63,203 nucleotides of DNA from Candidatus Omnitrophota bacterium (GTDB taxonomy: Bacteria > Omnitrophota > Omnitrophia > Omnitrophales > JACROU01): assembly GCA_016214265.1 (NCBI GenBank), contig JACROU010000023.1, positions 1 to 63,203 of the forward strand, in the 5' to 3' direction. The notes beneath the pieces are model-generated. The model saw only the letters and a list, made by a program, of their open reading frames with translations. It was not told the DNA's origin and did no database searches. Position numbers and translations under genes: made by a program. Numbering within the stretch: the first letter of the stretch is position 1; the number at the start of each line of letters is the position of its first letter. Positions 17,750-29,138 of this stretch are shown here, piece by piece.

Positions 17750-18772
17750 ATGCATATAGATCTAAATATGATTTGGTTTGGCCTGGTTGGAATTTTGTTC
17801 ACGGGTTACGCCATTCTGGACGGGTTTGATTTAGGTGTGGGGGCTTTGCATCTTCTGACCAAGACAGACGATGAGCGGCGAATTATGCTGAATTCGATAG
17901 GTCCCGTTTGGGACGGCAACGAGGTTTGGTTGGTAACGGGCGGGGGTGCGCTGTTTGCGGCTTTTCCTTCTGTTTATGCCACGGTTTTTTCGGGGTTCTA
18001 CCTTGCTATTTTCCTTCTATTATTTGCCCTCATTTTCCGGGCGGTGGCTATTGAATTCAGAAGTAAACAGCCCATGAAATGGTGGAGAACTATGTGGGAT
18101 ATCAGTTTTAGCGTGGGCAGTATATTCTCGAGTTTTCTGATCGGTGTGGTGCTGGGAAATGTGGCTTGGGGAATTCCGCTTACGGCGGATCATGAATATG
18201 CCGGAAATTTTTTGAGCCTTCTGCATCCGTACGCGCTTCTGATTGGTTTGACTACGGTGGCGCTTTTTATGATGCACGGAGCCATTTACGCCGTGATGAA
18301 GACGGAAGGCGCGCTCCATGACAAAATTTCTTCGTGGGTGAATAATGCTATTATATTTTTTATTATCTGCTACGCAACAGCAACGATGGCGACTTTGCTT
18401 TACGTGCCCCACATGACGGTTTATTTCAAACAACACCCCGTTCTCTTCACTTTGGCATTCGTCAATATGCTTGCTATTGCGAATATTCCGCGTGAAATTC
18501 AAAAGGGAAGGGACTTCTTTGCATTTCTGTCTTCATGTGCGGCTGTTATTACGCTTATGGCTATTTTTGGGATTGGTGTTTTTCCGAATATGGTGGTTTC
18601 AAATCCTAATCCTGAGTACAGCTTGACGATTTACAACTCTGCTTCATCCGCCAAAACCCTTAAAATCATGCTCAACATCGCATTGATGGGCATCCCGCTG
18701 GTTTTAGCTTACACCGTAAGCATCTACTGGATATTCCGCGGCAAAGTCAAACTCGACAAAATGAGCTATTAA
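17750..18772 (+). CDS. cydB: cytochrome bd ubiquinol oxidase subunit II
   Basis: Polytopic protein. The GFDLGVG N-terminal motif is typical of CydB. It follows cydA by 9 nt. Confidence 0.9.
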   Translation: MHIDLNMIWFGLVGILFTGYAILDGFDLGVGALHLLTKTDDERRIMLNSIGPVWDGNEVWLVTGGGALFAAFPSVYATVFSGFYLAIFLLLFALIFRAVAIEFRSKQPMKWWRTMWDISFSVGSIFSSFLIGVVLGNVAWGIPLTADHEYAGNFLSLLHPYALLIGLTTVALFMMHGAIYAVMKTEGALHDKISSWVNNAIIFFIICYATATMATLLYVPHMTVYFKQHPVLFTLAFVNMLAIANIPREIQKGRDFFAFLSSCAAVITLMAIFGIGVFPNMVVSNPNPEYSLTIYNSASSAKTLKIMLNIALMGIPLVLAYTVSIYWIFRGKVKLDKMSY

Positions 18773-18779
18773 TTCTCGC

Positions 18780-18807
18780 TTGACATCAGCATGTCCTATG
18801 TTAAGAT
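18780..18807 (+). promoter_or_regulatory. sigma70-type promoter: TTGACA, 16-nt spacer, TAAGAT
   Basis: TTGACA at 18780-18785 and TAAGAT at 18802-18807, ~55 nt upstream of the fur ATG. Confidence 0.55.
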
Positions 18808-18819
18808 TCTGTCCAATTA

Positions 18820-18840
18820 AGATTTAATCTGAATTAGATT
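18820..18840 (+). promoter_or_regulatory. Overlapping AT-rich palindromes, candidate Fur-family operator
   Basis: AGATT-T-AATCT (18820-18830) overlaps AATCT-GAATT-AGATT (18826-18840). Located just downstream of the -10 element. Confidence 0.45.
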
Positions 18841-18861
18841 TTGTCTGAAACGGAGGTGGGT

Positions 18862-19278
18862 ATGTCTAAAACATTCAAGGCATTGCTGGAGGCGAAAGGG
18901 CTTAAGCTCACCCACGAACGCAGGGTGATTTTTGAGGAAGTGTCGCGCCTTAATGAGCATTTTGACGCCGACAGTCTCTACGACAGGTTCAAGAAAAAAG
19001 GACTTAGGATTTCGCGTGATACTGTTTACCGGACTATCCCACTTCTATTGGAAAGTAATGTTATTCAGAAGTCCGTTGGCGAGGGGAAAAGAGAGTTTTT
19101 TGAACGAACTCCCAGTAAAGGACATCACGATCACATTCTTTGTGTTCAGTGCGGAAAAATTATCGAATTCACTTCGAAGGAAATCGAGTTGCTTCAGGAT
19201 AAGATTTGCGCGAAGTACGGATTTAAATTGACCTTCCACGACCACCGCCTGTTTGGTTATTGCAAGGAATGTCAGTGA
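18862..19278 (+). CDS. fur: Fur-family metalloregulator
   Basis: Winged-helix N-terminus, HHDHILCVQCGKIIEF, and the C-terminal CKEC. GGAGGTG RBS before ATG 18862. Confidence 0.85.
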   Translation: MSKTFKALLEAKGLKLTHERRVIFEEVSRLNEHFDADSLYDRFKKKGLRISRDTVYRTIPLLLESNVIQKSVGEGKREFFERTPSKGHHDHILCVQCGKIIEFTSKEIELLQDKICAKYGFKLTFHDHRLFGYCKECQ

Positions 19279-19310
19279 TCAACTGCCAGCCGAATGAGGT
19301 TAGGTCAGGA

Positions 19311-19430
19311 ATGCGCTTGATTGATTCCAAAAATATTTTTGAAGGAAATCGTGAAGTTTTAATTCAGCATGAGCGCGATGTCTACCGTCTTATCATCACA
19401 AAGTCCGGTAAGCTGGTTTTAAATAAATAG
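19311..19430 (+). CDS. hemP: HemP-family small protein (39 aa)
   Basis: MRLIDSKNIFEGNREVLIQHERDVYRLIITKSGKLVLNK fits the HemP pattern (F.G.REV.I.H....Y.L..T..GKL.L.K). Below the track's size cutoff. AGG..GGA upstream. Confidence 0.6.
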   Translation: MRLIDSKNIFEGNREVLIQHERDVYRLIITKSGKLVLNK

Positions 19431-19499
19431 TCACAAAAACCTTAGCTAGGGATGGGCCACAAGTCAGGTACCCAGCAAACTAAAACGGGAGATGCACCG

Positions 19500-20243
19500 A
19501 TGAAAAAGCTGGGATTGTCTTTTTTTGTTTTGCTATTGATTTTAAGTTTAAATGTGAAGAGTTCGTTTGCGTCTGTTCGTCAATACGTCTGGACGCAGGA
19601 ATATCGCACATTACCAAAAGGGACTGTGGAATTGGAATCTTATACGACATTTAAAGTCCCAAATAGCAAATTTACGAATAGCAACTCGATTGAATACAAG
19701 GGCGAGGTGGAGTATGGACTTACGGATCGTTTAAACCTGGCGCATTACGAAAACTGGCAGACAAATAATCGTCGTGGCCTGGATGACTCCACGGTTTATA
19801 CCGGATTTAAGTTTGAAGGAAAGTATCGCCTGTTGGACAAAGGAAAGCTTCCGGTTGATATTCTGCTTTATTTTGAAATTGAGGACAATGTGCAGAATAA
19901 GAATCATCCGCTTAAGTTGGAAGAGAAACTGATTGTTTCCAAAGATTTTAAAAAACTGAATGTTGTTTATAACCAGATCCTTGAATCGGATTTGGGACAG
20001 GATGGCCGGACTGAGCCGGGATTTTCGTTTGCGACAAAATACGAACTGTTCCCCAGCTTTTATGCAGGCTGTGAATTTTTCGGCAATTATTGGGAGCCCA
20101 GTTCTCATCGCAATAAACTTTCCATTGGTCCTACGATTGCCTGGGAGAACCAATGGTTTTGGGTAACGATGGGCGTTGCATTTGGCGCGAATAATGCGGC
20201 GGATGATTTTCAAGGGCGAGTTATCGTCGGTTTCGAATTTTAG
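19500..20243 (+). CDS. outer-membrane beta-barrel protein, unknown family
   Basis: Signal peptide MKKLGLSFFVLLLILSLNVKSSFA, alternating amphipathic strands, and a C-terminal ...VIVGFEF with terminal Phe. Confidence 0.6.
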   Translation: MKKLGLSFFVLLLILSLNVKSSFASVRQYVWTQEYRTLPKGTVELESYTTFKVPNSKFTNSNSIEYKGEVEYGLTDRLNLAHYENWQTNNRRGLDDSTVYTGFKFEGKYRLLDKGKLPVDILLYFEIEDNVQNKNHPLKLEEKLIVSKDFKKLNVVYNQILESDLGQDGRTEPGFSFATKYELFPSFYAGCEFFGNYWEPSSHRNKLSIGPTIAWENQWFWVTMGVAFGANNAADDFQGRVIVGFEF

Positions 20244-20252
20244 GAGAAGATC

Positions 20253-20483
20253 GTGTTTAAAAATATCGCTTTTGGCATATTATTTTTTACATTGCTCATG
20301 GGCAGTTTTGCATTTGCGCAGGTGGGGAAAAATAGCATTTGTCCTGTGATGCCGGGTGAGTGCACTAAGGACCAGTTTCACGTCGATTATAATGGCGAGA
20401 GGATTTATCTCTGCTGCAAGGCTTGCGTGAAAGGTTTTAAACGGGATCCTGAGAAATATTTCAAAAATTTTAAATCGGAATAA
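20253..20483 (+). CDS. secreted YHS/TRASH-like metal-binding domain protein
   Basis: Signal peptide, then CPVMPGE...Y.GERIYLCCKACVKGFKRDPEKY. GTG start with AGGAGA RBS. Confidence 0.6.
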   Translation: MFKNIAFGILFFTLLMGSFAFAQVGKNSICPVMPGECTKDQFHVDYNGERIYLCCKACVKGFKRDPEKYFKNFKSE

Positions 20484-20508
20484 ATTTCGAAAAAGGATAA
20501 ATTTATTT

Positions 20509-21267
20509 ATGTTGCAAGCATTCATAATCGTACTGAGGGAAGGTTTTGAAGGGTTTTTGATTTCCGCAATAATCCTCGCGTTTCTTCGAAGACTAGGAGA
20601 TCGATGGCTTGAGGCGGCGGTGTATTGGGGAATATTTGTTTCTGTGATTACCAGTGCACTGTTGGGTTACATATTGCGCGACGGACTCAATCAGTCTCTG
20701 TGGGAGGGAATGCTTGCCCTAGCTACTATTGTGATGGTTGGTACATTGGTCATTCAGATGTGGAAAATGGGTCCGCGAATCAAAACCAACGTTGAAAGTA
20801 AACTTGTAGTTCTTTCATCAAATAAATCAAAGTTTGCTGCTTTTTGGGGTGTTTTTATTTTCACGGTTCTTATGATTACTCGGGAAGGTATGGAAACCGC
20901 AGTGATGCTTATTCAGATTCAGGAGGGCCATTTTGTATTCGGAGCAATCCTGGGTATTCTGTCTGCCGCCGCACTCTCTTTTTCTTGGATGCGATTCAGT
21001 TATCTTATCAATGTCAGGCGCTTTTTTCAGGTTACGGGAGTGTTCTTTTTGCTGTTTCTCGCGCAGCTGGCCATTTATTCCATTCATGAATTTGCTGAAG
21101 CCGGAATCCTGCCCAATAGTCCCTTTGTGCATAATTCGACCGAGATGCTGTCTCCGGATGGATATTATGGCAAATGGTTCTCTCTTTTGATTGTTGTTAC
21201 TTGCGCCGTCTGGCTGGTATGGGGATATGTTTCTGACAAATTTCGACAGCCAGTATTCTTAAAGTAA
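20509..21267 (+). CDS. FTR1-family high-affinity iron permease
   Basis: Two REGxE motifs (REGFEG near the N-terminus and REGMET mid-protein) in a ~7-TM protein. Confidence 0.8.
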   Translation: MLQAFIIVLREGFEGFLISAIILAFLRRLGDRWLEAAVYWGIFVSVITSALLGYILRDGLNQSLWEGMLALATIVMVGTLVIQMWKMGPRIKTNVESKLVVLSSNKSKFAAFWGVFIFTVLMITREGMETAVMLIQIQEGHFVFGAILGILSAAALSFSWMRFSYLINVRRFFQVTGVFFLLFLAQLAIYSIHEFAEAGILPNSPFVHNSTEMLSPDGYYGKWFSLLIVVTCAVWLVWGYVSDKFRQPVFLK

Positions 21268-21439: not shown

Positions 21440-21658
21440 TTGAAAGAAGACAACCCGAACGATTGGCTTTTTTATTTAGGATTAGTGACGCAACTCGGAC
21501 TGGTCGTTGTGGTATGCATTCTCACGGGGTTTTTTGTGGGGCTTTACATTGACAAAAAGTGTTCGAGTTCCCCCATTGCAACTAGTATTTTTACTATCGT
21601 AGGCATTGGAGCGGGACTGATTAACGCCTATCAACTAATTATGCGAAAAATAAAATGA
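21440..21658 (+). CDS. AtpZ/AtpI-family small membrane protein
   Basis: 72 aa with two TM helices (LGLVTQLGLVVVVCILTGFFVGLYIDKK and PIATSIFTIVGIGAGLINAY). TTG start. First gene of the atp operon. Confidence 0.65.
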   Translation: MKEDNPNDWLFYLGLVTQLGLVVVVCILTGFFVGLYIDKKCSSSPIATSIFTIVGIGAGLINAYQLIMRKIK

Positions 21659-22053
21659 ATCCTTCCGAACCACTTGAAATTCAATCCTATCGCCGGCGAA
21701 TCACAGGAATGACCTGGCTTGTCACCGGTATTGCAGGTGCTGTCTTCGCGCTTGTGGGGATGTGGCATTGGACACTGGGATTGATTCTTGGTTTGGCGAT
21801 CGGGATGATTAATTTCTTCCTTCTGTGTCGTCAAACGGCTCGATTGGCCAATGCCGCCCAGGATAAAGCGAAGGGGATTATGATTCTGGGGCACTGGATG
21901 CGGTATCTTCTGATTGGAAGCGTCGTTTACTTGGTTTACAAAAAAGGCTCTGTTTCATTTCCTGCGTTTTTGATTGGCATGATGCTAGTTTATGGCGTAA
22001 TTTTTTTTGATGGAATTTTCGCCTCTCGGGCCCGGAAGGGTATGGAATCATGA
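21655..22053 (+). CDS. atpI: ATP synthase protein I
   Basis: 132-aa, four-TM protein immediately upstream of subunit a. ATGA overlap on both sides. Confidence 0.6.
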   Translation: MNPSEPLEIQSYRRRITGMTWLVTGIAGAVFALVGMWHWTLGLILGLAIGMINFFLLCRQTARLANAAQDKAKGIMILGHWMRYLLIGSVVYLVYKKGSVSFPAFLIGMMLVYGVIFFDGIFASRARKGMES

Positions 22054-22952
22054 AAAAACTGATTATCACCATCGGGCTGATTCTCTTCTTTGCCTGGCAG
22101 TTTCATCTTGCCATGCACATCACTCCGGATCTCTCAGAGGTCGGAAAGCCGCCGCATAAAATTCATGAATTGTTTGGTGTTCACATTCCTTTCGGCGGCA
22201 TTAATGTTCATACGATCCTGACTACCTGGATTGTGATTGGTATTCTGGTGCTGATGAGTCTGTTCTTGCTCGACAAACCGCAGATTGTACCGTCCCGCAC
22301 ACAGGCTTTTCTCGAATTGATTATCGAAGCCTTCTTGAAATTGTGTGAAGATACGCTGGGCTCTAAATTGGGACGGAAGTATTTTCCATACGTCATGACC
22401 GTTTTTCTGTTCATTATCTGCTCAAATTATCTGGCGCTTCTGCCATTTCATCTGTTTGAAGACAAGCCGACTCGTGATCTGAATACAACATTGGGCATGG
22501 GTTTGCTCGCGTTCTTTGTTGCGCATCTTTCCGGAATTAGAATTAAAGGCTTTCTTGGCTATCTCAAGCATTATTTCGAGCCATTTATTAAAATTGGCAA
22601 ATGGGAAATTCCAAATTTTATTTTTGCACCGCTTCACATAGTTGGTGAAGTCGGAAAAGTGGTTTCCCACAGCTTTCGTCTTTTCGGCAACATTACGGGA
22701 GAGACAATCATCATTGTGGTGGTAACGAATTTGGTGCATTTCTGGTTATTGCCTCCGGTGCTAAGTGTTTATTTCATTATGCTGATTGGCGCGATTCAGG
22801 CATTTGTATTTACGATGCTTGCTCTCACATATTTATCGATTCAGATTCGGCATGATGATGAGGAAGAGCATGCGGATGTTATTGATCTGGAAAAAGGGCC
22901 TTTGATTTCGGAACACGAAGCGCATGCGGTTGCTGGTGCGGGGAAACACTAG
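22050..22952 (+). CDS. atpB: F0 ATP synthase subunit a
   Basis: HSFRLFGNITGE (essential Arg) and the QAFVFTMLALTYL motif. Has an acidic/His-rich C-terminal tail of ~35 aa. Confidence 0.9.
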   Translation: MKKLIITIGLILFFAWQFHLAMHITPDLSEVGKPPHKIHELFGVHIPFGGINVHTILTTWIVIGILVLMSLFLLDKPQIVPSRTQAFLELIIEAFLKLCEDTLGSKLGRKYFPYVMTVFLFIICSNYLALLPFHLFEDKPTRDLNTTLGMGLLAFFVAHLSGIRIKGFLGYLKHYFEPFIKIGKWEIPNFIFAPLHIVGEVGKVVSHSFRLFGNITGETIIIVVVTNLVHFWLLPPVLSVYFIMLIGAIQAFVFTMLALTYLSIQIRHDDEEEHADVIDLEKGPLISEHEAHAVAGAGKH

Positions 22953-23672
22953 ATGGATCCTATTTCAGCATTAAAACTTGGATCGTTTGTCGGCGCGGCG
23001 ATTGCTGTTGGGCTGGGTTCACTTGGAGCCGCGATTGGGATTGGTATTGCGACAGCGCGTGCGGTTGAGGCGATGATGCGACAGCCGAAAGCGGCCGGCA
23101 CGATTACCCGGGTACTTTTAATCGGAATTGCTGTGGCCGAGTCGCCCGCGATTTTTGCGCTCGTGGTCGCAATTATTTTGATTTTCAATCCCGGAAATCC
23201 GGGGAATACGGCGCATGTGATGGGACTTTTGGGCGCCGGAATTTCGATTGGAATTGGAACGATTGGTTCCGCGCTCGGTGAGGGATATACCGCGGGGCAT
23301 GCCTGTGAATCAGTGGGGCGTCAGCCTGGAAACGAAGTTAGTGTGGTTCGAACGATGCTGTTGGGGCAGGCGGTCGCGGAATCGCCGGCTATTTTTTCTC
23401 TGGTGGTTGCCATGCTCTTAATTTTTATCAACGTGTCTGATAGCTTTGTTCACATTATTGCGATGTTGTCTGCCGGGTTTTGCATGGGAATCGGTGCTTC
23501 GCCGGCCGGAATTGGCGAAGGCTTCGCTGCCGGGATGGCGTCGAAGAATGTAGCTCGATATCCACAATCGGCAGGGATTATTACCCGTACGATGTTAGTC
23601 GGACAGGCTGTAACAGAATCAACCGCGATTTATTGTTTTGTTGTTGCGATGTGTATTATCTATTTAACTTAA
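22953..23672 (+). CDS. atpE: F0 subunit c, three-hairpin (six-TM) fusion
   Basis: One uninterrupted 239-codon ORF holds three consecutive c-type hairpins, each about 80 aa. Each has a Gly-rich helix 1, a polar loop (RQPKAAG, RQPGNEV, RYPQSAG) and a helix 2 with a carboxylate (IAVAESPAIF, QAVAESPAIF, QAVTESTAIY). Confidence 0.85.
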   Translation: MDPISALKLGSFVGAAIAVGLGSLGAAIGIGIATARAVEAMMRQPKAAGTITRVLLIGIAVAESPAIFALVVAIILIFNPGNPGNTAHVMGLLGAGISIGIGTIGSALGEGYTAGHACESVGRQPGNEVSVVRTMLLGQAVAESPAIFSLVVAMLLIFINVSDSFVHIIAMLSAGFCMGIGASPAGIGEGFAAGMASKNVARYPQSAGIITRTMLVGQAVTESTAIYCFVVAMCIIYLT

Positions 23673-23690
23673 ACCAAGGAGAAATGAATC

Positions 23691-23942
23691 ATGACCATTA
23701 CAGGAGCTGAAATTATCAGAGCAGCCGCAGTGCTGGCGGCAGGATTTTGCATGGGGTTTTCGTGCTTAGGTCCGGGAATCGGCGAAGGTTATGCTTGCGG
23801 AAAAGCAGTTGAGGCTATCGCGAAAGAACCTCAACAGGCTGGGCCGATTACTCGCACGATGTTGGTAGGACAAGCCGTTACTGAATCCCCAGCGATTTAT
23901 GCGCTCGTAATCGCGCTCTTGCTTCTTTTTGTTGTGAAATGA
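23691..23942 (+). CDS. atpE: F0 subunit c, conventional single hairpin
   Basis: 83 aa: GPGIGEGYACGKAVEAIAKEPQQAG...LVGQAVTESPAIYALVIALLLLF. GGAG RBS. Confidence 0.9.
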   Translation: MTITGAEIIRAAAVLAAGFCMGFSCLGPGIGEGYACGKAVEAIAKEPQQAGPITRTMLVGQAVTESPAIYALVIALLLLFVVK

Positions 23943-23976
23943 CACCGCAGGTGTCATCCTGAGCGCAACGAAGGAT
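23940..23976 (+). repeat. Two adjacent small palindromes between the atpE and atpF genes
   Basis: TGACACC-GCA-GGTGTCA (23940-23956) and ATCCT-(11 nt)-AGGAT (23956-23976), read directly. Confidence 0.75.
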
Positions 23977-24020
23977 CTGCTTTATGCTCAAGAAAAAGTG
24001 TCGTCTTGGAGGAATAATTC

Positions 24021-24497
24021 ATGATTGAAATTAGTTTTACCATGATCCTGCAGTGGATCAACTTTGGCATTTTACTTTTCTTTCTGTCCAAGGTTCTCTA
24101 CAAACCATTGTTGAATGTGCTGGATAAGCGCCGTGCGATGGTTGAGGGGGAGATTTCTGAGGCGAAGAAGAAAAAAAATGAAGCCGAGGAGATCTTGCGT
24201 GAGTATCAATCCAGGCTGGATGATTTGAAAGCCGAAGGGCGAAAAATTGTTGAAGACGCCAGGCGTCAGGCTGTGATCGAAAAAGATAAGATTCTTGATT
24301 TGGCCACCTCGGAAGCAAAACTTTCGATCGAAAACGCACGCCTTGAAATCGAGGCGCATTCGCTTGAGGCGCGTGACGAGATTAAACGTCAGGTTGCAGA
24401 TTTAGTTGTGGAGTGCGCTGCGAAAGTGATTGAGCGCGAAGTGCGTGAAGAAGATCATCAAAAATACATCGAAGATTTTATCGCTAGGGTAAAGTAA
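24021..24497 (+). CDS. atpF: F0 subunit b
   Basis: N-terminal TM helix followed by a long charged coiled coil. Position in the operon. Confidence 0.85.
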   Translation: MIEISFTMILQWINFGILLFFLSKVLYKPLLNVLDKRRAMVEGEISEAKKKKNEAEEILREYQSRLDDLKAEGRKIVEDARRQAVIEKDKILDLATSEAKLSIENARLEIEAHSLEARDEIKRQVADLVVECAAKVIEREVREEDHQKYIEDFIARVK

Positions 24498-24499
24498 TC

Positions 24500-25048
24500 A
24501 TGCCGAAAGCCTCAACCTCTAATCCTGGAATTCAGCGATATGCCCTGGCGTTTTTTCACGCAATCAAGGGCGAGCGCATGGATCCGATTATGGCGGAGTA
24601 CCGGATGATTTTGGAACTGTTTCGCGCTTACCCCGATTTAACCCAAGTGCTTAATCATCTGTTGTTAAAGGATGAGGAGAAAGAGCGGATTCTCGCCCGC
24701 GTGTTGGAGACTTGCTCGGTATCCAAAGAGATGGCGAGTTTTTTAAAAACATTGCTTCGTCGGCGGCATATGGATTGGCTAGAGTCAATTTTTGAGGCGT
24801 TGCAAGCGTTGGTTGATAAGGCGCATAACCGTGCTACTGCCTTTGTTAAGGTGGCGGTGAAATTATCTGAAGTGCAGCGTGAAAAGCTGCGCGCCAAATT
24901 GGAACAACTGACTCACAAAAAAATTGATCTGCGAGTGGAATTTGATCCTACGGTGATTGGCGGGATTGTTGCCAAGGTGGGAGACCGGATTTTTGACACC
25001 AGTTTAAAAAACAAACTCAATTTGATTAAAGCAGGAATGGAAAGCTAA
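24500..25048 (+). CDS. atpH: F1 subunit delta (OSCP)
   Basis: C-terminal [28 protein letters not shown] is typical of delta. Confidence 0.85.
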
Positions 25049-25065: not shown

Positions 25066-26580
25066 ATGAAAATTAAATCGGAAGAAATTACATCACTGCT
25101 TCGGGCGGAGATTGAGGAATTCAAAAAGAAACTAGATGTTCGTGACGTCGGCATCGTTATTAAGGTAGGTGACGGTATCGCGACAATTTTTGGACTTGAG
25201 CGTGCCATGTATGGCGAGCTGCTTCAGTTTCCGAACAATGTGTACGGAATGGTGCTGAATCTTGAGGACGAAACCATCGGTGCGGTGCTTTTTGGCTCCG
25301 ACGAGTTGATTAAAGAAGGTGATGAAGTTCGCGGTACGGGACGTGTTGTGGACGTTCCGATAGGGGAGGGGCTTGTGGGGCGTGTGGTGAACGCGCTGGG
25401 ACAGCCGATTGATGGGAAGGGGCCAATCAAATCGACGAAACGTCGCCCAGTTGAAACGATTGCTCCGGGCGTTGTCGAGCGTCAGCCGGTGAAAGAGCCG
25501 CTCCTGACGGGGTTGAAGGCGATCGATTCCATGATTCCTATCGGACGGGGGCAGCGCGAGTTGATTATCGGCGACCGGCAGACGGGCAAAACTGCTGTCG
25601 CTCTAGACACGATCATCAATCAAAAAGGTCAGAATGTGATTTGCATTTATGTTGCGATCGGTCAGAAAAATTCCAGTGTGGCGCAAGTCATCAAAACACT
25701 CGAAGAATTTGACGCGATGAAATACACAATCGTTGTTTCGGCCACCAGTTCTGATTCCGCCCCGCTTCAATATCTGGCTCCGTATGCCGGCTGTTCGATT
25801 GGTGAAGATTTTCGCGATAACGGACAGCATGCGCTTGTGATATACGATGACTTGTCCAAACACGCTGCGGCTTATCGCCAGCTGTCACTCCTCTTGCGTC
25901 GTCCGCCGGGCCGCGAAGCGTTTCCTGGCGATATATTCTACGCGCACTCGCGTCTTCTCGAACGCGCCGCGAAAATGAATGAACAGCATGGCGGTGGATC
26001 GCTCACTGCACTTCCGATTATTGAAACGCAGGCGGGTGACGTTTCAGCATATATTCCTACCAATGTGATTTCGATTACGGATGGTCAAATTTATCTGGAA
26101 GCCGATTTGTTTTATCAGGGCATTCGCCCAGCCGTGAACGTGGGACTTTCAGTATCGCGTGTCGGCGGCAACGCACAGTTCAAAGCCATGCGGCAAGTGG
26201 CAGGACGTTTGCGTCTCGACTTGGCTCAGTACCGGGAAATGGAAGCCTTTGCTCGTTTCGGTACAGAATTGGATGACGCCACAAAACAGCAGTTGGAGCG
26301 TGGCAGGCGGCTGGTGGAAATTCTGAAGCAGAATCAGTATGTTCCTATGCGGCTCGGACTTCAGGTCATCATTATTTATACCGGTGTGAATGGATATCTG
26401 GATGATTTACCGGTGCAGGACATCCGGAAATTTGAGGCGAGATTTTCGCAATATCTTGAATCTGAAAAGAAGGGCCTCCTCGATAAAATTGAAGCCTCCC
26501 GTGAAATTACGGAAGAAATCAAACAAACTATCGAGGATGAAATTCGGTTTTTCAAAAAAGATTACGCGATTAAGGCTTAA
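25066..26580 (+). CDS. atpA: F1 subunit alpha
   Basis: GDRQTGKT P-loop and overall alpha-subunit sequence. Confidence 0.95.
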
Positions 26581-26586
26581 TCCAAA

Positions 26587-27462
26587 ATGGCAACTCTTCG
26601 GGAAATTAAGCGCCGTTTGACCGGTGTTAAAAATACGCAAAAGATTACCAAGGCCATGAAAATTGTGGCCGCGACGAAGTTGAAACGCTGGGAAAAAGAC
26701 GCGATTGGGTCGCGCCCATATTTCGAGCACATTGAAAATATGGTCAAGGACCTCATAGTGACTGTTGGCAGCGTTGAACACCCTTATCTTGACGTGAGGA
26801 AGGGTAAAAAACTTTTGATTGTCGTGGTGACTTCCGACCGGTGACTTTGCGGTGCATTTAACTCAAATCTGAATCGCAAAGTTTATGAGCTTGCGAAATC
26901 AGAACGCGCGAAGGGGAAGGAAGTCAGTTTTTATATTTTGGGGTCCAAAGGCATTCGGTTTTTTACCGCAAAAGGAGAGCCTCTTTTTAAAAGCATCCTC
27001 GCGGTTGAGCGGCACAAAAAACAAGAACTGGCTAAAGAGATTACCCGCGAATTGGATGAATTGTTCGTGGGGCAGAAGTTTGACGAAATTATTCTGGCGT
27101 ATAACGGATTTATCAATCGCTCCAGTTATGTTTCGCGTATTCAGCCGTACCTTCCGGTAGCGTTTAATCAACAGGTAATTGCTGCTGAGACCTCTGAGGC
27201 AAAAGGGTTTTATGCGTTTGAACCTTCATCTGAAGGGGTGCTTGCGGTTCTTTTTCCAATGTTTCTTGAATCAAAAATTTTCCGTTCTCTCGTGGAATCC
27301 AAAACGGCTGAAGAAGCCGCGCGCATGCTCGCGATGGATTATGCCACTGAGAACGCCAGTGAGATTGTGAGTGAGTTAACGTTGCTTTATAACCGTGTCC
27401 GCCAATCGGGAATCACGAAAGAAATTTCTGAAATTGTCGGCGGTGCGGAAGCGCTTAAATGA
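26587..27462 (+). pseudogene. atpG: F1 subunit gamma, interrupted by a single in-frame TGA (26842-26844)
   Basis: Track ORFs 26587..26844 and 26938..27462 are in the same frame with no other stop between them. The readthrough sequence VVVTSDR*LCGAFNSNLNRK puts the TGA exactly where gamma subunits have the Gly of DRGLCG. Total 292 codons, a normal gamma length. Confidence 0.85.
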
Positions 27463-27474
27463 CAGAGGAGATAA

Positions 27475-28889
<1,415 letters not shown>

Positions 28890-28890
<1 letters not shown>

Positions 28891-29138
28891 TGATTCCGGA
28901 AATACTAAAACTCAGCATCATCGGCTACGATCGGGTGATTTACCAGGGCGAGGCGGAGTTTGTGGTGCTTCCGACCCAATGGGGGGAGATGGGCGTTCTG
29001 CCTGGTCACACCAAGCTGTTCGCACTTCTGGCGCCTGGAAAAGTCAGGGTGAAGAATAAGGGCAAGGAAGAAGTTTTTTCTGTCCGCGATGGTGTGATTA
29101 AAGTTAAACCCGATGAAGTTGAAGTGCTGAGCGCTTGA
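28890..29138 (+). CDS. atpC: F1 subunit epsilon, short form (beta-sandwich domain only)
   Basis: 82 aa. G.MGVLPGH motif. No C-terminal helical hairpin is encoded before the stop at 29136-29138. Confidence 0.8.

Follow-up and report, generated by a model that had tools for sequence, protein, structure and literature searches.

The 63,203-nucleotide (nt) contig JACROU010000023.1 of a Candidatus Omnitrophota bacterium (assembly GCA_016214265.1), hereafter the window, carries a canonical F-type ATP synthase operon in which two genes for the rotor subunit c stand side by side. One (22953-23672) encodes three complete c-subunit hairpins fused in a single 239-residue polypeptide, here termed c3, and the other (23691-23942) an ordinary single-hairpin subunit of 83 residues, here termed c1. 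Every hairpin of c3 retains the helix-2 glutamate, and from the sequences it is the possession of three hairpins together with every ion site that appears to distinguish this protein among heteromeric F-type rings with a multi-hairpin subunit. On balance we think it probable that c3 and c1 form one mixed rotor ring in a canonical F1Fo ATP synthase, with c3 at low copy number and each of its hairpins carrying an ion. A preliminary description made from the DNA letters had reported one uninterrupted open reading frame of three hairpins with a carboxylate in each, too divergent to be an assembly collapse and therefore an old fusion, with a normal c gene 18 nt beyond it in an F-type setting. Its account of c3 and its neighbourhood proved correct throughout, and the profile searches, survey of related genomes and structure prediction that it had called for all agree with it.

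The c3 reading frame runs on the forward strand, as do the other genes of the operon, from ATG to TAA without an internal stop codon. Compared with Pfam family PF00137 (ATP-synt_C), the protein gives three complete stretches (135.7 bits, E 6.2e-40, gathering cut-off 24), a score far above chance, and three stretches are likewise recognised by the NCBIfam F0F1 subunit C models, TIGR01260 with 105.6 bits against a cut-off of 43.95. Hairpin 1 (residues 1-80, 22953-23192) has isoleucine at the position of Gln32 of I. tartaricus and carries Glu63 (codon 23139-23141) in an AVAES motif, with S-P-x-x-F after the glutamate. Hairpin 2 (residues 81-160, 23193-23432) has Glu110 and, again in AVAES, Glu143 (23379-23381), and includes the motif GEGYTAGH. 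Hairpin 3 (residues 161-239, 23433-23669), the most single-c-like of the three, has Glu189 and, in AVTES, Glu222 (23616-23618), here followed by S-T-x-x-Y. An 18-nt spacer (23673-23690) separates c3 from c1, which scores 67.1 bits on PF00137 and has Glu32, Glu65 (codon 23883-23885), Ser66, Pro67 and Tyr70. The loops read RQP, RQP and RYP in c3 versus KEP in c1.

The three hairpins are only distantly alike, sharing 37-42% identity in protein and 49-51% in DNA. Hairpin 3 is closer to c1 (51% in protein and 56% in DNA, or 56% in protein over trimmed columns). The longest direct DNA repeat within 22900-24000 is 25 nt at 80% identity, and because the hairpins have diverged this far and no longer repeat is present, collapse or misjoining of a tandem array is excluded. 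Three separate genes are likewise ruled out, with no stops in the reading frame and the arrangement kept in independent assemblies. The fusion is old, since identity among the hairpins has fallen to about 40% and comparison with relatives shows synonymous sites to be saturated.

The c3 and c1 pair was found in at least six distinct Omnitrophota-type sequences with 45-92% identity. The nearest database proteins have 239-240 residues and 79-92% identity, one of them labelled Candidatus Omnitrophica, and an uninterrupted c3 followed by a single c occurs in proteins and loci that we number P0002, P0003/L006, P0005/L001/L002, L007 and P0144/L020. P0005 belongs to a syntenic operon on a 2.17-Mb contig, with the identical c3 and c1 pair and identical downstream genes, and a scan of one genome per species of the GTDB found the pair in two Omnitrophota metagenome-assembled genomes (L006 and L007). 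Even the 45%-identical relative P0144 (L020) has the order c3, c1, b, delta, alpha. The site residues are the same in the window, L001, L002, L006, L007 and L020, namely I/E/S/P/F in hairpin 1, E/E/S/P/F in hairpin 2, E/E/S/T/Y in hairpin 3 and E/E/S/P/Y in the single c; the pattern I/E/E at the Gln32 position across the three hairpins is thus invariant, as are Glu63, Glu143 and Glu222 among the Omnitrophota-type relatives. When each hairpin was compared separately with its counterpart in L001, the proportion of nonsynonymous differences (pN, 0.12-0.22) was far below that of synonymous differences (pS, 0.63-0.81), indicating that all three hairpins are under purifying selection. The split between the window genome and that of L001 is also old.

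An AlphaFold2 model of c3 (pLDDT 95.4, pTM 0.89) shows six long helices (residues 3-43, 45-77, 86-123, 125-158, 165-202 and 204-238), corresponding to six transmembrane helices; the linkers, at residues 78-85 and 159-164, are short and periplasmic. A Foldseek search with this model gave the c1 subunit of Acetobacterium woodii (4bem_J) as best match, with a TM score of 0.82 on the target, followed by two-hairpin V-type proteolipids; no solved chain spanning all three hairpins was found by Foldseek. The same A. woodii chain was the best match in a sequence search of the PDB (E 1.8e-24).

The operon, in the order atpZ, atpI, a, c3, c1, b, delta, alpha, gamma, beta, epsilon, is canonical F-type. 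A V/A-type enzyme was rejected, as there are no A, B or I subunits and the best V-type K model scored 54.6 bits against a cut-off of 211; the solved structures matched by the c3 sequence are all F-type c subunits, with no V/A-type chain among the PDB matches at E <= 0.001. An N-ATPase was rejected on the canonical gene order and on the presence of a separate delta (OSCP) gene, which identifies the operon as F-type rather than N-type. The scores on N-ATPase models are also below their cut-offs, with 71.9 bits for the single c on TIGR03322 (cut-off 130.85) and 95.2 bits for subunit a on TIGR03306 (cut-off 302.1).

Evidence on the relative amounts of the two subunits comes from their translation signals. 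Shine-Dalgarno motifs in the window operon precede only c1 (AAGGAG, 23676-23681), b, alpha and beta, which are the multi-copy subunits, and none was found before a, c3, delta, gamma or epsilon. The c1 motif is the strongest in the Fo part of the operon, with a predicted duplex to the anti-Shine-Dalgarno sequence of -8.5 kcal/mol versus -5.7 for c3. Across 18 loci from at least five phyla that share the order a, multi-hairpin c, single c, this duplex is stronger for the single c in 16. Because the Shine-Dalgarno sequence is stronger for c1 than for c3, c3 is probably the minority component, possibly with one copy per ring. The TAG stop codon of subunit a (22950-22952) abuts the ATG of c3 in the same frame (22950-22955), which suggests that translation of c3 may be coupled to that of the single-copy subunit a; this abutment is not kept in L001, where the gap is 100 nt.

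Co-assembly of c3 and c1 with a low c3 copy number is the most likely arrangement, judging from Shine-Dalgarno strength and the precedent of A. woodii. The rotor ring would contain two kinds of c subunit, with single-hairpin c1 as its probable bulk and c3 in three adjacent positions. Subunit c3 would be present at low copy number, perhaps once per ring, like the two-hairpin c1 of A. woodii. As every hairpin retains the essential helix-2 glutamate, each c3 hairpin would pick up and release one ion at the interface of a and c, and since no carboxylate has been lost and the number of ions per turn is not reduced, fusion alone would leave the ion/ATP ratio unlowered, in contrast to the A. woodii, V-type and Desulfobacterales forms. 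Fusion would instead fix an arc of three hairpins covalently, so that three ion sites next to one another, and three cytoplasmic loops, would differ permanently. As a matter of speculation, such fixed non-equivalence could serve ring nucleation, the setting of ring size or the docking of gamma and epsilon. A more specific form of this proposal, which we regard as doubtful, makes c3 a single-copy, built-in breaker of rotor symmetry, with one three-hairpin arc per ring that docks gamma and epsilon, nucleates assembly and sets the ring size at 3+n; the canonical RQP loops of c3, as against the unusual KEP of the bulk c1, would then be a fixed docking platform for gamma and epsilon. An equally tentative part of it is that the all-carboxylate Omnitrophota form could be a living intermediate of 'duplication before site loss', alongside relatives with the patterns EQE, EQQE and EQQQQ (helix-2 residues of successive hairpins).

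H+ is a more likely coupling ion than Na+, since by the rule used in ProAD the Na+ motif Q/E...E-S/T-S/T/Q-x-x-Y is complete at only one possible interface, that of hairpin 3 followed by c1. Hairpin 1 lacks the Q/E residue, hairpins 1 and 2 have S-P-x-x-F, and c1 has S-P-x-x-Y. The cytochrome bd oxidase encoded nearby is compatible with proton coupling.

Several points weigh against the mixed, ion-carrying ring. The Shine-Dalgarno asymmetry is an indirect argument and fails in L020, and in a second exception, L009, the called start is doubtful. The c3:c1 ratio and co-assembly cannot be read from sequence, so that a mixed ring of 3n+m hairpins is an inference. Ion specificity is ambiguous, with equivalents of Thr67 and Tyr70 absent at most interfaces, and the arrangement of two carboxylates at positions 32 and 65 is known in the Na+ enzyme of Fusobacterium nucleatum (PMC3692424). 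The all-carboxylate three-hairpin protein P0191 (L023) has no single c gene 3' of it. Finally, the gamma gene of the window contains an in-frame TGA (26842-26844) in place of the invariant glycine of SDRGLCG, for which each of the 14 relatives has a GGN codon. The TGA may reflect an error in sequencing, a genuine nonsense mutation or a site of read-through, and if it is real, this copy of the genome may yield no working enzyme. A genetic code in which UGA specifies glycine was rejected because c1 itself stops at a TGA, at the position where its orthologues end; no further split genes pointing to such a code were evident.

Other arrangements of the same two subunits have to be weighed against a mixed ring. 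The operon could produce alternative homomeric rings, of c3 only (9, 12 or 15 hairpins) or of c1 only, and so obtain two ion/ATP ratios, which we think unlikely. Sites are complete in both subunits, engineered fused c proteins form functional rings alone (PMC8809890), and homomeric rings of fused subunits may exist, since P0191 has no adjoining single c. However, c3 and c1 lie 18 nt apart in an operon where a promoter and terminator scan gave nothing exceeding the shuffled expectation, so that any separate regulation of the two would need to act on translation. Across phyla, multi-hairpin c genes also keep a single c as partner, and the sole precedent with a solved structure, A. woodii 4BEM, has both kinds of subunit in one ring. 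It is distinctly unlikely that the proportions are reversed, with c3 as the major or sole ring component and c1 a minor filler that shifts the hairpin number off multiples of three. A few single hairpins would suffice for a 3k+m ring of any size, and the position of c3 directly after subunit a makes translational coupling possible, but coupling to a single-copy subunit speaks for low c3 output, and the strongest Shine-Dalgarno sequence of the Fo genes stands before c1 with none before c3, the same asymmetry as in most of the related loci.

That c3 is no working rotor subunit at all seems highly improbable, whether it is taken for a degenerating duplicate, a product of misassembly or a scaffold that helps the ring to assemble without staying in it. 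The premature stop in the window gamma gene makes some decay of the operon conceivable, but the c3 gene is uninterrupted in the six or more distinct sequences, which come from separate assemblies, pN is far below pS in each hairpin, the functional residues are all invariant, long DNA repeats are absent and the AlphaFold2 model is confident and c-ring-like. A mixed ring with c3 as its minor component remains the reading that we prefer.

Subunit c3 is not a singleton, and belongs to a large, apparently undescribed set of multi-hairpin F-type c subunits. An exhaustive HMMER search over 1.84 billion cluster representatives gave 1949 matches at E <= 0.001, and among the best 150 the number of hairpins ranged from 2 to 13. 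In a word-index search, 83 of the best 120 matches had four hairpins and 33 had five, most of them belonging to Desulfobacterales and Thermodesulfobacteriota. Three-hairpin proteins of Cloacimonadota and Armatimonadota came to light in the GTDB scan, as did a two-hairpin protein of 'Planctomycetes bacterium DG_23'. None of these multi-hairpin proteins has an annotation more specific than 'ATP synthase F0 subunit C'. Among loci with enough context, the multi-hairpin gene lies directly 3' of subunit a and is followed by a single c in L001-L015, L020-L022 and L024, with L023 as the exception and L025 considered separately below.

These proteins differ in hairpin number and in the residue at the helix-2 site. 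The four- or five-hairpin proteins of Desulfobacterales (among them L003/L004 8001-9215, L005 8001-8975, L012 3995-4969 and L014 1051-2265) show EQQE, EQQQ, EQEE, EQQQE or EQQQQ, with glutamine replacing the carboxylate in the inner hairpins and often also in the last one, so that in some a single ion site is left among five hairpins. The second hairpin keeps the RQP loop in 81 of the 83 four-hairpin proteins, the other glutamine hairpins less often, and the single c that follows has a full E...ESTxxY Na+-type motif. The three-hairpin proteins of Cloacimonadota and Armatimonadota (250 residues; L008-L011 and L013) have the pattern EQE, and the two-hairpin protein of DG_23 (L015 3321-3815) has EQ, and in each case a single c comes immediately after the gene in an F-type operon. 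All-carboxylate patterns were found in the Omnitrophota proteins (EEE), in the three-hairpin P0145 (L021 6001-6708) and P0149 (L022 222-959) and the five-hairpin P0126 (EEEEE, L024 5566-6870), all in F-type operons, and in P0191 (EEE, L023 309-998). In P0191 the hairpins are 80-83% identical to each other, which marks it as a young triplication. Hairpin multiplication has thus occurred repeatedly among F-type enzymes and at different times, and c3 of the window is one of the old multiplications in which no site was lost.

Some further proteins were noted in these searches. P0182 (L026 490-1446) represents a large class of four-hairpin proteins of about 318 residues with the pattern E-Q-E-D, only 27-31% identical to the window protein. 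The class comprises 35 clusters at 50% identity, and one short contig shows such a gene directly 3' of an F-type subunit a gene (PF00119). P0136 (L025 7001-9907) has 968 residues and 13 hairpins, all with glutamate, and is recorded beside an ATP-synt_A gene; the L025 locus DNA does not translate to P0136 under table 11, possibly owing to another genetic code or a coordinate problem. P0248 has 1139 residues and 12 hairpins, again all with glutamate. In P0136 and P0248 an entire ring may be contained in one polypeptide.

The relationships among hairpins were examined in a neighbour-joining tree (71 columns, bootstrapped). Hairpins 1 and 2 of the A. woodii c1 subunit and its c2 subunit formed a clade of their own with 90% bootstrap, and common descent of c3 with A. 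woodii c1 was rejected on this basis; the A. woodii fusion is independent, because its hairpins cluster with its own c2. Other groups, which would imply positional orthology of hairpins across phyla, received only 9-19% bootstrap, namely first hairpins with the Omnitrophota hairpin 2, the inner glutamine hairpins, and last hairpins with single c; hairpin 3 of the window grouped with the single c at 42%. Outside Omnitrophota, the GEGYTAGH motif of hairpin 2 recurs in multi-hairpin c subunits of Cloacimonadota, Armatimonadota, DG_23 and Desulfobacterales, where it is located in the first hairpin. Only 59 stretches in the GTDB collection match GEGYTAGH or M[LI][SA]AGFCM, and all ten that were confirmed as relatives are multi-hairpin c genes. 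GEGYTAGH, as the sole support, hints that hairpin 2 of the window may correspond to the first hairpin of the other multi-hairpin forms.

Hairpin 1 has an E. coli-like GAAIGIGI and no polar residue at the Gln32 position. Its nearest single-hairpin relatives are 75-residue c subunits in ordinary operons of more distant organisms (52-59% identity), whose alpha subunits are only 52-55% identical to that of the window. When hairpin 1 was the sole query of a word-index search, only four proteins were retrieved and c3 itself was not among them, so that this result is a poor guide to the distribution of the hairpin. A history in which a two-hairpin ancestor (hairpins 2 and 3) later gained the N-terminal hairpin is reasonable but unproven.

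The closest characterised parallel is the ring of A. woodii, which contains one c1 and nine c2/3 subunits, 11 hairpins in all (PMC9171764; PDB 4BEM), and Clostridium aceticum has the same design of Na+ F1Fo enzyme with an F/V-hybrid rotor (PMC7911925). In the window, as in A. woodii, a multi-hairpin c gene lies directly after a in an F-type operon and is followed by a single-hairpin c; both multi-hairpin proteins also have phenylalanine in the first hairpin and tyrosine in the last at the Tyr70 position. Unlike the two-hairpin A. woodii c1, however, c3 has three hairpins, and whereas the second A. woodii hairpin has glutamine for the carboxylate, giving one site per four helices, c3 is EEE. 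The A. woodii enzyme has the full Na+ motif, which is incomplete in the window. With the Desulfobacterales four- and five-hairpin forms, the Cloacimonadota and Armatimonadota three-hairpin form and the DG_23 two-hairpin form, c3 shares the gene order and a last hairpin with S-T-x-x-Y that resembles the single c, but it differs from those lineages (EQE, EQQE, EQQQ and EQQQQ) in its EEE pattern and its extra, E. coli-like first hairpin.

For V- and A-type enzymes, c subunits of several hairpins are textbook knowledge, with archaeal examples in Methanocaldococcus jannaschii, Pyrococcus and Methanopyrus kandleri. The c subunits of archaeal A1Ao enzymes have 1, 2, 3 or 13 hairpins (PMC9171764). As in those proteins, the hairpin has been multiplied in c3 within one polypeptide; the archaeal proteins, however, belong to A/V-type enzymes and usually have fewer ion sites than hairpins, whereas c3 is F-type with a site in every hairpin. 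Closer in this respect are engineered fusions, the E. coli c2 and c3 of Jones and Fillingame (1998) and the Bacillus PS3 c10 of Mitome (2004), which were functional (PMC8809890); for the E. coli trimers this is stated in the title of the 1998 paper, as cited there. These fusions likewise use short periplasmic linkers to join hairpins C- to N-terminus and retain all carboxylates, but they are artificial, with identical repeats, designed linkers and no partner single c, whereas the window hairpins are about 40% identical and differ in site and loop residues. In keeping with the all-glutamate c3, one E56Q substitution is enough to inactivate the enzyme of Bacillus PS3 (PMC8809890).

The preliminary description had also supposed that no F-type c subunit with three hairpins and every site intact had been described. 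This stands for the full-text literature, where searches turned up no account of an F-type c exceeding two hairpins, although sequence databases do hold numerous relatives under generic annotation; Brandt and Mueller 2015 (PMID 25838297) was not covered, and an earlier mention there is possible. The ProAD paper (PMC11738941) speaks of c/K subunits with 'two or more hairpins', and shows logos only of one- and two-hairpin c, among them two-hairpin F-type c subunits, one with two sites, and none larger. A preprint on c-ring stoichiometry drops sequences above 250 residues and does not discuss fusions, and for Desulfatiglans-related bacteria a recent paper goes no further than 'two to four atpE copies'.

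The remaining genes of the operon are as expected for the F-type. The first encodes an atpZ-like small membrane protein (ATPase_gene1, 21440-21658; PF09527, 54.6 bits), with an equivalent gene at this position in L001, L005 and L021, and is followed by atpI, of the c-ring assembly factor family (21655-22053; PF03899, 47.5 bits), and by the 300-residue Fo subunit a (22050-22952; PF00119, 157.4 bits). Beyond c1 are Fo subunit b (24021-24497; PF00430, 97.2 bits), F1 subunit delta (24500-25048), whose L001 orthologue matches PF00213 and is 61-71% identical to it, alpha (25066-26580; 82-90% identical to alpha of L001, L006 and L007), gamma (26587-27462), with PF00231 matching on both halves around the TGA, beta (27481-28890; 89% identical to that of L001), and a short epsilon of 82 residues (28890-29138; 63% identical to the L001 gene, which matches PF02823). 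A perfect 6-bp stem-loop, GACACC-gca-GGTGTC (23941-23955), lies over the c1 stop codon. It has no T-tract and is not in the terminator-scan output; it might affect mRNA stability or processing 3' of c1. Rfam and tRNA scans gave no relevant match. Immediately upstream of the operon (17750-21267) are genes for cytochrome bd oxidase subunit II, a Fur-family regulator, a YHS-domain protein, an FTR1 iron permease and a 263-residue protein without a Pfam match, and 3' of it are genes for a TP_methylase, a formyltransferase and enolase.

How many ion-binding hairpins a c-ring contains sets the ion/ATP ratio, which is central to cellular energetics, and the F-type multi-hairpin c subunits characterised so far, from A. 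woodii and close acetogens only, have two hairpins, with one site dead. A three-hairpin c that occurs in nature and has all of its sites is a counterpart of the engineered c3 fusions with which ring stoichiometry was probed, and it supplies the step of 'multiplication without site loss' in the accepted scenario for the origin of V-type proteolipids from a single-hairpin c. Several anaerobic phyla together present a graded F-type series of EE, EEE, EEEEE, EQE, EQQE and EQQQQ, and because this natural series exists, the model of duplication followed by site loss becomes testable. The series opens the further question of how carboxylate-free positions are tolerated, given the inactivation of the Bacillus PS3 enzyme by an E-to-Q change, and it bears on how ring size is determined. 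For specialists the surprise is likely to be the breadth of the multi-hairpin set and the occurrence of all-intact forms; their proposed function is deduced from sequence, and the set deserves description.

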